Below are positions 23,689 through 44,954 of a stretch of 64,000 nucleotides of DNA, piece by piece. The translations under genes were made by a program, and so were the position numbers. The notes beneath the pieces are model-generated. The model had not been told where the DNA came from. It ran no database searches and worked only from the letters and a program-made list of their open reading frames with translations. Within the stretch, counting starts at the first letter, position 1. Each line of letters starts with the position of its first letter. Origin of the DNA: Escherichia phage vB_EcoM_G53. The stretch lies in sequence record MK327943.1; one strand, written 5' to 3'.

Positions 23689-23707
23689 TTTGTTCTCCGT
23701 TTGTTTT

Positions 23708-23746
23708 GATAGGACTACTATAACATAGTCCTACCAAGATGTAAAC
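23708..23746 (-). promoter_or_regulatory. Early promoter / stem-loop cassette (GATAGGACT ... AGTCCTAC inverted repeat around the -10)
   Basis: gataggactactataacatagtcctac...gtaaac; minus-sense -35 GTTTAC and -10 TATAGT. Confidence 0.55.
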
Positions 23747-30012: not shown

Positions 30013-30342
30013 TTATACTCTAGGCTTTTGAGCTTGTTTGGTATTGGATTCCCATGCGGCTTTGGTAATTTTGTTAGCGGCATAACCAAAGGCATTAGAT
30101 AGAACACCTTTAGAGTTGAATACATCCAATCCAATAAGTACACCGGCTGTGTTAAATTTAGGAGCAAAGTACGCATTAGTTTTAGAAAGAACTTTTTTCA
30201 ATTCAGGGTCTTGAACCAAGCCATCAAAAACGCCTTTACTATTTACTTTGTATGTTACTTTGGGATTTTTACCTTCTTCGATAGCAGCTTTCTGTTCCGC
30301 AGATAATGTAACTTCAGTGATAAACTCCTGATATGTTTTCAT
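30013..30342 (-). CDS. Internal protein (IP) candidate with capsid-targeting N-terminus
   Basis: 109 aa starting MKTYQEFITE, the conserved N-terminal capsid-targeting sequence of T4 internal proteins. Confidence 0.75.
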   Translation of the reverse strand: MKTYQEFITEVTLSAEQKAAIEEGKNPKVTYKVNSKGVFDGLVQDPELKKVLSKTNAYFAPKFNTAGVLIGLDVFNSKGVLSNAFGYAANKITKAAWESNTKQAQKPRV

Positions 30343-30367
30343 TTTGTTCCTATTGTTTTAATTTATG

Positions 30368-30682
30368 TTATTCTTTAGGGAAGTTTTTAGAGTATGCATC
30401 ATAAAGTTTATTACCAATACGACGGAAGACTTTAGCTGCAAAACGGTTTTCAGGGTTTTTAATCATGATTTGCATCATGTAAGTTCCTGCATCCGAAAGA
30501 GCTTCTTCATAGTACCCATTAATTTCTTTAAGAGTCCTACGTTTACCGCCAGGACCATCAACAGTAATTTTCCATTTACCTGTAGAAGTGCGGCTCGGTG
30601 GCTCAACTTGTTCAATCCAAATATAACCACCTTCAACGCGTTGGTTGGCGGATTCTGCAATAAATTCTTTATACGTTTTCAT
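30368..30682 (-). CDS. Internal protein (IP) candidate with capsid-targeting N-terminus
   Basis: 104 aa starting MKTYKEFIAE; body unrelated to the neighbouring IP. Confidence 0.75.
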   Translation of the reverse strand: MKTYKEFIAESANQRVEGGYIWIEQVEPPSRTSTGKWKITVDGPGGKRRTLKEINGYYEEALSDAGTYMMQIMIKNPENRFAAKVFRRIGNKLYDAYSKNFPKE

Positions 30683-41406: not shown

Positions 41407-41922
41407 TTAAAGCAAATCAATCATTTTAACAGTCGGCAAAACGATTTCTTCTTCAATATAAGCAAATTCAACACATTCAACTACGCGCAAGAAATCATAA
41501 TCATAATATTCAGAAGCATGGCCAAGAATATCAATGAGACCTTCTGATACTAAATATCCATTCTCATGGAACAGGTCAAATACACGCGATTCGTCTTCTT
41601 CAGATTTATTACCAAGGTCGACTTCAATATCAAAGACCTTTTTAATGAATTCTGGATAAAGCTGGTCTGAGAACAATCCTTCAACCAAGTATTCATAGAT
41701 TAAAAGCGAACAATCACTGAATAGTGTATTACCACAGTAACGTTCAGCTTTAGTGCTGGAATGACGGCTCTTAAATTTCTTCAAAAGATATTTAAACTGT
41801 TGGAGCTCATGCTCTTCCACACCAAATAATGTTTTGGTTTTATAGTTGTCGCCGTCATTTTCCCAAGTAGTGACATCAATTACGTAACCCTTAGGAATTG
41901 TACTGCCTAAACAAATATTCAT
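41407..41922 (-). CDS. Hypothetical acidic protein (171 aa)
   Basis: ORF, Glu/Asp/Tyr-rich. Confidence 0.55.
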   Translation of the reverse strand: MNICLGSTIPKGYVIDVTTWENDGDNYKTKTLFGVEEHELQQFKYLLKKFKSRHSSTKAERYCGNTLFSDCSLLIYEYLVEGLFSDQLYPEFIKKVFDIEVDLGNKSEEDESRVFDLFHENGYLVSEGLIDILGHASEYYDYDFLRVVECVEFAYIEEEIVLPTVKMIDLL

Positions 41923-42577: not shown

Positions 42578-42763
42578 TTACTCACCTTTTGCAATTTTAT
42601 CCATAACGATAGCGATTAAGCCGATTAGAAATGCTACTACCAATGAGATAGAATTTTCTGTTGTTGACAGTAGTCCACAAATGAATCCTACAAACATCGA
42701 AAAACTAAAAGCCATTGAAGCAATTACTACAGCAACATTACGAATCAGTTCAGCGCGTTTCAT
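42578..42763 (-). CDS. Small membrane protein
   Basis: 61 aa from MKRAELIRNVAVVIASMAFSFSMFVGFICGLL with SD GGAG; two hydrophobic helices. Confidence 0.5.
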   Translation of the reverse strand: MKRAELIRNVAVVIASMAFSFSMFVGFICGLLSTTENSISLVVAFLIGLIAIVMDKIAKGE

Positions 42764-42791
42764 TTTATTTCTCCATTTACTCATTTGATTT

Positions 42792-42830
42792 GATAGGACT
42801 ACTATAACATAGTCCTATCATCATGTAAAC
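42792..42830 (-). promoter_or_regulatory. Early promoter / stem-loop cassette (perfect 9-bp inverted repeat around the -10)
   Basis: gataggactactataacatagtcctatc...gtaaac; minus-sense GTTTACA-17-TATAGT. Confidence 0.6.
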
Positions 42831-42832
42831 TA

Positions 42833-43096
42833 TTAAATTCCAGCTTCGCGTTTAACATAATCGACATAAGCTTGGATAGCTTTCTTGCTGGTAATTTTTA
42901 CCTGGCCACGACCATTGCCTTCTTTAGAGTTTTTCTTAACAACTACATTACCATCTTTAACACCCCATACATGGACATAAGTACCGATGTTTCGGTCGTA
43001 GAACATTGCATGGTCGTTGTTGTAAGAGAATGATTCGTAGTTCTCCGACAGAGTAGAAGATTGAGATTCAGCGATAAATTCTTTATACGTTTTCAT
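42833..43096 (-). CDS. Internal protein (IP) candidate with capsid-targeting N-terminus
   Basis: 87 aa starting MKTYKEFIAESQ. Confidence 0.75.
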   Translation of the reverse strand: MKTYKEFIAESQSSTLSENYESFSYNNDHAMFYDRNIGTYVHVWGVKDGNVVVKKNSKEGNGRGQVKITSKKAIQAYVDYVKREAGI

Positions 43097-43122
43097 TTGT
43101 TTTTCCGTTTGGTTGTTGATTT

Positions 43123-43161
43123 GATAGGACTACTATAACATAGTCCTATCTGCATGTAAAC
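43123..43161 (-). promoter_or_regulatory. Early promoter / stem-loop cassette
   Basis: Identical core to the 42792 copy (gataggactactataacatagtcctatc). Confidence 0.6.
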
Positions 43162-43164
43162 TAC

Positions 43165-43452
43165 TTACAGAAGAGTTTTTGCAATAATTTTAAGCTGAGC
43201 TACAGAAATATGCTTAGCTTTAAACAGTGCGGTCTCTTCAGCCGGAGAGATAACAATAGTAGCGCCATCTTTCTTAGCAGACCATCCATCCCCTAAGTAA
43301 ACAGTACCTTTTACTTCTTCGCCATCAACCAGACTAATCATCGGTTTACCCTCACGTCCTTTATTTGCTTTAATAACTTCGGAAGTAAGGGTTGCTTCGG
43401 TCAGAGTAGAAACGTTAGCAACAGGTGATATAAATTCTTTATAGGTTTTCAT
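43165..43452 (-). CDS. Internal protein (IP) candidate with capsid-targeting N-terminus
   Basis: 95 aa starting MKTYKEFISPVANVSTLTEA. Confidence 0.7.
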   Translation of the reverse strand: MKTYKEFISPVANVSTLTEATLTSEVIKANKGREGKPMISLVDGEEVKGTVYLGDGWSAKKDGATIVISPAEETALFKAKHISVAQLKIIAKTLL

Positions 43453-43529
43453 TTTATTTCCTTGAGGTTGTTTATTTGATAGGATGATAGTAACACACCA
43501 TCATCCTTATGTAAACTGTTTTGTGAAAA

Positions 43530-44215
<686 letters not shown>

Positions 44216-44219
44216 TTTA

Positions 44220-44954
44220 TTACCTTAAGATTGTTTCAATTTTAGAATAAAGCTCTTCTAAAGAGCCGTCGTTTGTAATAACTAAATCGCCTTCTTCAAT
44301 AGGCAACCCAGCTTCTGTAATATGTTTATCGGTGGATTCCGTACCAGAGCGAACCACATGAATAACTGTAGCACCCATCGCTCTAGCGGTTTCCATTTCA
44401 TGGACTTGGCGTGTATCGGTTACAACATAGTAATCGAAATCACTTCCAATATAATCCATATAGTTTAATGCAAAAAGCTTAACCCAATACATACGGTCAA
44501 ATAAATTAACGACAACATCCGTACCGAGGGCTTGCATAAGACGGCGGATTGACCATGTGTCGTTGATATTATTTATAGCTTCACGCAGGGCTTCATATGG
44601 TTTAATATCTAGATACGAATATCCACCTTCTAACGATGATAATACTTTAACATTATTAATCGGTAAATATTGACTTTGCAAATAAATTAGCGCTTCTTCC
44701 AATAATTCAATAACATCCAACTTATTGAGATTTAATGGTGTTTCACGGTCGTATCCAATGCCTTCAAAGTATTCGTATTTCAACTCTGTGAATACATCAG
44801 GATTTTCAGCATGCCTACGTCCCCAGGCTATTGCTAGAGCGTCTTTAATTGGATATGCTAATTGGTATTTTACGGATTTAAAGTTTGAATTGATGTAATC
44901 AGCAGTGGTGTCTTTACCACTACGTTTGATGCCACTTAAAAAGATTAGCTCCAT
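44220..44954 (-). CDS. 1: Deoxynucleoside monophosphate kinase gp1
   Basis: 244 aa; P-loop LSGIKRSGKDT; matches T4 gp1 in size and N-terminus. Confidence 0.9.
   Translation of the reverse strand: MELIFLSGIKRSGKDTTADYINSNFKSVKYQLAYPIKDALAIAWGRRHAENPDVFTELKYEYFEGIGYDRETPLNLNKLDVIELLEEALIYLQSQYLPINNVKVLSSLEGGYSYLDIKPYEALREAINNINDTWSIRRLMQALGTDVVVNLFDRMYWVKLFALNYMDYIGSDFDYYVVTDTRQVHEMETARAMGATVIHVVRSGTESTDKHITEAGLPIEEGDLVITNDGSLEELYSKIETILR

Follow-up and report, generated by a model that had tools for sequence, protein, structure and literature searches.

What occupies the interval between gene 57B and trna.4 in this T-even coliphage, and how many of the genes found there could act against host defences? 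The DNA analysed is a single stretch of 64 kb, called the window here. Over 1.8 kb it is 95-99% identical to many phage records, mostly labelled Mosigvirus, and NicPhage, phage 55, JK45 and O157 typing phage 3 are among the near-identical ones. An earlier note on this DNA, made from the letters alone, had proposed two ORFs at 42833-43096 and 43165-43452, and both exist exactly there, on the minus strand.

Gene order and borders of the locus

The genes are read from right to left, in the order gene 1, 57A, 57B, ipI (95 aa), ORF87 (87 aa), trna.4, trna.3 and trna.2.

44220-44954, minus strand: gene 1, dNMP kinase
43985-44215, minus strand: 57A
43530-43985, minus strand: 57B (Acb1); Pfam PF23474, E=1.3e-58, 197 bits; synteny with T4 57B
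43165-43452, minus strand: ipI (internal protein I, Ip1), 95 aa, starting MKTYKEFISPVANV...; PF11634 IPI_T4, E=1.3e-50
42833-43096, minus strand: ORF87, internal-protein-like, 87 aa, starting MKTYKEFIAESQ...; phrog_13302 (function unassigned), E=2e-37
42578-42784, minus strand: trna.4 homologue, small hydrophobic protein; phrog_1692, E=3.8e-32; synteny with T4 trna.4

Gene 57B is Acb1, the anti-CBASS 2H phosphodiesterase, and the HxT motifs LHSTI and PHITL are visible in its translation. The Pfam match confirms that the locus adjoins 57B, as the earlier note had said. That note had also placed the two ORFs upstream of 57B, which is wrong, since transcription from right to left puts both ipI and ORF87 downstream of that gene.

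In the direction of transcription, 57B is the conserved left border of a variable locus, and trna.4 is its conserved counterpart on the right, found beside the variable slot in nearly all of the loci surveyed. The interval between them is the hypervariable ipI internal-protein (IP) locus of T-even coliphages, here with two cassettes. A hypervariable IP locus with flanking cassettes has been described in this interval since 1994 (Repoila et al., via Arbiol et al. 2010, PMC2839356). T-even phages carry two IP loci of this variable kind, and the count of IP variants exceeds 30 (Arbiol et al. 2010, PMC2839356).

Within the 64 kb of the window, no more than four ORFs start with the pattern MK[TS][YF][KQ][ED]F, namely ipI, ORF87 and a pair at 30013-30682:

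30013-30342, minus strand: 109-aa ORF with a capsid-targeting leader (MKTYQEFITE...)
30368-30682, minus strand: 104-aa ORF with a capsid-targeting leader (MKTYKEFIAES...)

The pair presumably lies in the ipII/ipIII region, which forms the second internal-protein locus.

Internal protein I

T4 IPI (Ip1) is injected into the host and inhibits the GmrSD enzyme of E. coli CT596. The 95-aa ORF of the window is ipI, judged by its sequence an orthologue of T4 IPI. Its product scores 169.7 bits against Pfam IPI_T4 (cut-off 25) and covers positions 1-76 of the 76 in the profile; it falls in phrog_4363 ('internal virion protein'), lies between 57B and trna.4 as in T4, and is 88% identical to T4 IPI over 95 aa. 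Residues 20-95 match the mature chain, IPI* (PDB 2JUB), with E=5.8e-42 and 4/76 differences (95% identity), the substitutions relative to T4 being I46V, A83V, H85Q and N93T. The leader, or capsid-targeting sequence (CTS), comprises residues 1-19 (43396-43452) and ends in STLTE, followed by ATLTSEV; the solved mature chain begins at A20. The mature IPI* has 76 aa (43168-43395; 8.0 kDa, pI 9.0). T4 IPI and the protein encoded here are equal in length, in locus and in having a 19-residue leader that ends x-T-E before A.

The label on most of the closest records is Mosigvirus; RB69, whose DNA carries arabinosyl-hmC, belongs to this genus. The RB69 allele of IPI has four differences in the mature part and is reported to be protective (PMC6024577).

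The mode of action would be that of T4 IPI, by orthology (PMC3012670; PMC12373910). The N-terminal CTS would bring the precursor into the prohead core, where the gp21 prohead protease would cut after L-T-E19, and the 76-aa IPI* would be injected with the DNA and block a GmrSD-type type IV restriction nuclease that cuts sugar-modified hmC DNA. With a mature part 95% identical to T4 IPI*, ipI would be expected to inhibit GmrSD restriction of such DNA.

What remains of the proposal that two more internal-protein genes lie here, and three candidate anti-defence genes in a row? The IPI_T4 match makes one of the two ORFs the known ipI and leaves ORF87 as the uncharacterised one. As ipI is Ip1 and 57B is Acb1, two of the three anti-defence genes are already established, and ORF87 is the true candidate among them.

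ORF87, a second gene with a capsid-targeting leader

Is ORF87 a gene at all? It is annotated as 'hypothetical protein' in every record, and an ORF that is short and belongs to no Pfam family might have arisen by chance between two regulatory repeats. Its alleles argue otherwise. Synonymous differences among them number up to 14, against 5 non-synonymous ones (pN/pS 0.04-0.15), and residues 19-74 of the body are invariant among seven alleles at a pS of up to 0.26. The replacements cluster in linker residues 12-17 of the leader, and the L-x-E site is kept there as LSE or LTE in the seven alleles. Purifying selection acts on ORF87, and the gene is real. The PHROG family match (E=2e-37) also speaks against a chance origin, which has next to no likelihood of being right: it is refuted by the selection seen in pN/pS together with the high-confidence fold model that the eight-cluster family of ORF87 gives (see below).

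Both ORFs begin with MKTYKEFI, a T4-type leader, and in this the earlier note, which had called both of them capsid-targeted, was correct. In the CTS of T4 IPIII, residues 4 and 7 serve targeting and residues 8 and 10 processing; gp21 cuts after L/I-x-E, and propeptides have 10-19 residues (PMC9026906). ORF87 shows every one of these leader features. Its residues 1-18 (43043-43096) read MKTYKEFIAE followed by SQSSTLSE, and each of these two parts ends in an L/I-x-E site; the first contains Y4 and F7 (targeting) and I8 and E10 (processing), and the second site is L16-S-E18. With a cut between LSE18 and N19, the predicted mature body has 69 aa (42836-43042; 7.9 kDa, pI 9.4) and resembles IPI* in size and charge. 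The leader is equal to that of the CTS ORF at 30368-30682, and at the DNA level the leaders of ipI and ORF87 are homologous (repeat families D2 and D7, with STLTE and STLSE aligned).

Could the leader be vestigial, and ORF87 an early protein that stays unpackaged and acts only in the cytoplasm of the producing cell? Directly upstream of ORF87 there is only an early-type promoter, with no adjacent late promoter, and homologues of ORF87 work without a leader. T4 ipI, however, is packaged despite the same promoter layout; Y4, F7, I8 and E10 are intact in 7/7 aligned ORF87 alleles; and the L-x-E site survives S17T, although linker residues 12-17 vary. A vestigial leader is thus very improbable, and we keep to the reading of a packaged product. 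No late promoter was found directly upstream of ipI or of ORF87, and the motif nearest to them is the following:

44570-44577, minus strand: late-promoter motif TATAAATA inside gene 1, 1.5 kb upstream

Gene 1 of T4 also holds a TATAAATA motif (L003 5006-5013). If the motif in gene 1 of the window is used as a promoter, late transcripts could start there and read through 57A-57B-ipI-ORF87. A literature search for virion proteomics of Mosigvirus found nothing relevant.

Promoter/hairpin cassettes

A cassette of about 48 nt is repeated before ipI, ORF87 and trna.4. It consists of GTTTACA (-35), a hairpin, and TATAGT or TACTAT (-10).

43471-43518, minus strand: cassette upstream of ipI, a divergent copy; repeat family D1, 69% identical to the reference copy; inverted repeat I8
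43116-43163, minus strand: cassette upstream of ORF87, exact pattern match; D1, 96%; inverted repeat I7, 100% complementary
42785-42832, minus strand: cassette downstream of ORF87 and upstream of trna.4, the D1 reference copy; repeat spacing 331

The 46-nt cassette pattern has three matches in the window against 0 expected. A promoter scan over the cassettes gives 9-10/12 matches with a TG extension and a 17-nt spacer, and the hairpin overlaps both the spacer and the -10 hexamer. Upstream of ipI, the hexamers TTTACA and TACTAT span 43515-43487 and the hairpin arms lie at 43481-43491 and 43497-43507 (-16.8 kcal/mol, z -3.4). Upstream of ORF87, TTTACA, the 17-nt spacer and TATAGT span 43160-43132 (10/12, with the TG extension), and the arms at 43123-43132 and 43141-43150 form a hairpin of -17.3 kcal/mol (z -4.6). 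The hairpin of the trna.4 cassette reaches -18.2 kcal/mol (z -5.4). Each of the two ORFs does sit behind a promoter/stem-loop cassette of its own, as had been claimed, with promoters at 9-10/12 and hairpin z values of -3.4 to -5.4.

T4 carries the same promoter/hairpin composite before ipI and before trna.4. The ipI cassette of the window aligns with the T4 sequence upstream of ipI, its stem being kept via compensatory changes, and such changes are found in 5/11 pairs of the stem when six copies are compared.

How do these elements relate to the PeSLs of RB49 and phi1 (Arbiol et al. 2010; Comeau et al. 2014)? In both cases, a composite of early promoter and stem-loop is repeated around accessory ORFs, and the 331-bp indel seen here, with its breakpoints within the repeats, is of the kind expected of a PeSL-type recombination site. 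The PeSL as defined in RB49/phi1, however, has a Sigma-70-consensus promoter and a GC-rich GGGG...CCCC stem, whereas the -35 element of the window cassettes is GTTTACA, of the T4 early type, and their stems are AT-rich, without polyG or polyC. Elements at T-even IP loci have been described as analogues, not homologues, of PeSLs, built on T4 early promoters, and 'PeSL-like' elements at both variable T-even IP loci are credited to Repoila et al. 1994 (Arbiol et al. 2010, PMC2839356).

One more copy of the cassette is present in the window, far from the IP locus:

23701-23746, minus strand: fourth cassette copy, 3 mismatches to the 46-nt pattern

This copy may mark another shuffling hotspot.

ORF87 as a mobile unit

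In the window, two cassette copies bracket ORF87 to form a unit of 331 bp, the trna.4 cassette being the second copy of the direct repeat. Gain, loss and replacement of ORF87 all involve this unit as a whole, with breakpoints that fall within the repeated cassette. ORF87 is absent from T4. At the ORF87 slot, AV117 has only one promoter/hairpin copy, without an ORF, and Mizar has a different CTS ORF, of 102 aa. ST0 has the order 57B-ORF87-trna.4, without ipI; in RPN187, 57B-ORF87 is followed by a 90-aa CTS ORF, and in O157 typing phage 6, ipI-ORF87 is followed by a membrane ORF. In 33 T4-like loci from IMG/VR, between 0 and 3 CTS ORFs occupy the slot, and their bodies are diverse.

About 260 records hold the locus, and full-length ORF87 is found by tblastn in 28 phage records, all at an identity of at least 95% and mostly labelled Mosigvirus. 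The labels are inconsistent for JK45 (L001, NC_054940), which is Tequatrovirus according to RefSeq and whose ORF87 protein is labelled Mosigvirus in UniRef; the JK45 locus is 98.5% identical to Mosigvirus records. Between phage pairs, pS of ORF87 reaches 0.26 as against at most 0.10 for the adjacent 57B, i.e. it is 2-5 times as high (comparison with records L042-L045), which is consistent with a separate history of the cassette. We suggest that the ORF87 cassette moves, vanishes or is swapped via recombination between the flanking early-promoter/hairpin repeats.

Fold and relatives of the ORF87 body

What is the body that follows the leader? ORF87 has zero matches in scans of Pfam, NCBIfam and PADLOC, and a sequence-profile search of the PDB returned only noise (E of at least 0.43). 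Homology between the bodies of ORF87 and IPI was considered and rejected, as the hhalign probability is 0.06% and BLASTP aligns the leader only. No homology to IPI or to any Pfam, PADLOC or PDB entry marks ORF87 as an inhibitor of GmrSD or of type IV restriction. Searches by sequence and structure found no homology of the two bodies to structural or housekeeping proteins, a result by which the earlier claim of anti-defence candidates is left standing.

The AF2 model of the ORF87 body, obtained with distant homologues in the alignment, has a pLDDT of 92 and a pTM of 0.79 and consists of a beta-sheet and a C-terminal helix. An alignment of three sequences gave an unusable model (pLDDT 51.7), and confidence was reached only once the distant homologues were added. 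An independent BFVD model agrees with this fold (TM 0.99). The fold has no convincing likeness to any solved structure. An AcrIF13-like fold (PDB 7FI4, an anti-CRISPR) was also considered and was rejected, as significant structural similarity by two methods was not obtained.

The family is tiny, with 6 hits in a profile search of 1.84 billion representatives and 8 clusters in a database of 5.8 billion sequences. One of the 6 hits, a protein of 3562 aa (P0003), has 14 short repeated stretches that match positions 34-59 of the ORF87 profile (E=1.9e-11); this match is probably a compositional or repeat artefact of a K/G-rich loop.

All distant relatives are without the leader, and those that could be located lie in early-gene regions of T4-like phages. 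In the Dhakaviruses IME08 and IME341, the relative is found between gene 52 and motA. The IME08 copy (NC_014260; L004 2992-3216), which is unannotated in RefSeq, is 63% identical to the ORF87 body and has a repeated early-promoter element of its own, of 80 nt, in front. On metagenomic contig L038, the leaderless relative adjoins uvsX, gene 41 and a dexA-like gene, and on contig L039, it adjoins cef and the gene 39 topoisomerase. Pectobacterium phage PM2 carries a relative of 47 aa. The clade that bears the leader is narrow and near-identical, whereas the leaderless forms are broad and divergent, which argues that the leader was gained recently. The body of ORF87 was probably recruited from this small family of leaderless early T4-like proteins by leader fusion.

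As the distant relatives have no leader, the ORF87 body can evidently work unpackaged, and its target need not act on incoming DNA. Might ORF87 then be an injected or early factor for host takeover, acting on transcription, replication or nucleoid function, and not on defence? The neighbours of the leaderless relatives are early takeover and replication genes (gene 52-motA; uvsX/gene 41; cef/gene 39), and Alt, a packaged T4 protein, modifies host RNA polymerase (PMC9026906). Yet the cassette has a patchy distribution in an arms-race hotspot, beside two proven anti-defence genes, which favours counter-defence, and all members of the locus class with a known target inhibit a restriction enzyme (PMC12373910). 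We regard a takeover role as unlikely and return to ORF87 as a candidate agent of counter-defence.

A further thought is that the protein is packaged without having any specific target, as a generic small basic protein for neutralisation of DNA charge or for packaging or ejection. The mature body is certainly basic (pI 9.4, with 11 K+R in 69 residues), and in T4, internal proteins touch DNA phosphates through their lysines (PMC3012670). It is, however, a folded and strictly conserved domain, not merely a basic one, and its leaderless homologues in early regions cannot play a capsid role. The gene is moreover dispensable and patchy, found in about 28 records out of the roughly 260 with the locus, and IPII and IPIII, which were long seen as generic, proved to be specific GmrSD inhibitors (PMC12373910). 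A generic function is decidedly unlikely by comparison with a specific one.

A proposed role for ORF87

The locus is read here as a set of ipI and ORF87 cassettes, in which the ORF87 product would be packaged, processed by gp21 and co-injected, most likely as an inhibitor of one target, and in which the gene is mobile via the repeats. We give this reading a probability of about 0.72. ORF87 probably encodes another injected protein. We infer this delivery route from three features, its leader, the locus it occupies, and a product like IPI* in size and charge. Packaging, cleavage and injection would proceed as proposed for ipI, and cleavage would release a basic 69-aa protein of beta-sheet plus helix, co-injected with the DNA. 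By analogy with Ip1-Ip3, the protein would most likely bind and neutralise a single host factor directed at incoming DNA, either a nuclease or a defence protein.

How far does the analogy carry? Ip1, Ip2 and Ip3 each block one distinct GmrSD subtype, whereas for Ip4-10, from other T-even phages, none of 15 GmrSD groups was reproducibly inhibited (Silas et al. 2025, PMC12373910). The latter result makes 'Ip means GmrSD inhibitor' unsafe as a generalisation. The two results together make a specific anti-nuclease or anti-defence role the most likely reading for ORF87, yet not a secured one, and by this analogy its chances come close to even.

A bolder version is tentative and may well be wrong: ORF87 could enter with the DNA and inhibit a host defence against which no phage antagonist is known, and could at the same time exemplify 'leader capture'. 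Candidate targets would be GmrSD subtypes that are active on T-even phages and uninhibited by Ip1-10, or a nuclease that recognises arabinosyl-hmC DNA. If this version is true, 'leader capture' would mean that an early cytoplasmic anti-host protein is made to come pre-packaged and co-injected through fusion to a CTS at the cassettes.

Comparison with T-even internal proteins and significance

Features common to ORF87 and the T-even internal proteins (Ip2, Ip3, Ip4-10 and the more than 30 variants of Repoila 1994 and Comeau 2007) are the leader, the locus, the flanking promoter/hairpin repeats, a small basic mature product and a presence/absence polymorphism. It lies in the variable IP locus, flanked by early-promoter/stem-loop repeats, and is non-essential and polymorphic, being absent from T4 and AV117, replaced in Mizar and alone in ST0. 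It differs in that its body is unrelated to IPI in sequence (hhalign probability 0.06%) and is unusual in having leaderless homologues outside IP loci. None of the records or clusters compared, a set without the historic Ip4-Ip10 sequences, offers a named counterpart of ORF87.

What is new, then, is modest. Earlier work had already described the architecture of the locus, ipI, Acb1 and the cassettes; ORF87 is an unnamed, internal-protein-like addition to them, new relative to the records and clusters compared. As locus architecture, ipI and Acb1 are textbook matter, the general significance is modest also. Host immunity nevertheless meets injected internal proteins before any other phage molecule, and in 50 years, to our knowledge, targets have become known for only three of them (Ip1-3). 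ORF87 is a clean orphan candidate, being small and having a confident fold model. Nature has provided contrasts that are close to isogenic, in AV117 without the gene, Mizar with a replacement and ST0 with ORF87 in place of ipI, and these could be used directly for target finding in wild E. coli or Shigella. The leaderless relatives of ORF87 illustrate in a concrete case how early accessory genes may refill the stock of internal proteins.

Sequences beyond trna.4

Does the variability stop at trna.4? Further along in the direction of transcription, an ORF follows trna.2 here and in many relatives:

41407-41922, minus strand: 171-aa ORF, phrog_2290 (function unassigned)

Its counterpart is not among the annotated features of the T4 stretch NC_000866 70000-78000, in which the tRNA cluster comes directly after trna.2. 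In O157 typing phage 6 (L045), trna.4 and trna.3 are replaced by the 101-aa membrane-like ORF (1625-1930) and a second ORF (1932-2618), a layout which indicates that the variable region reaches beyond the IP slot.
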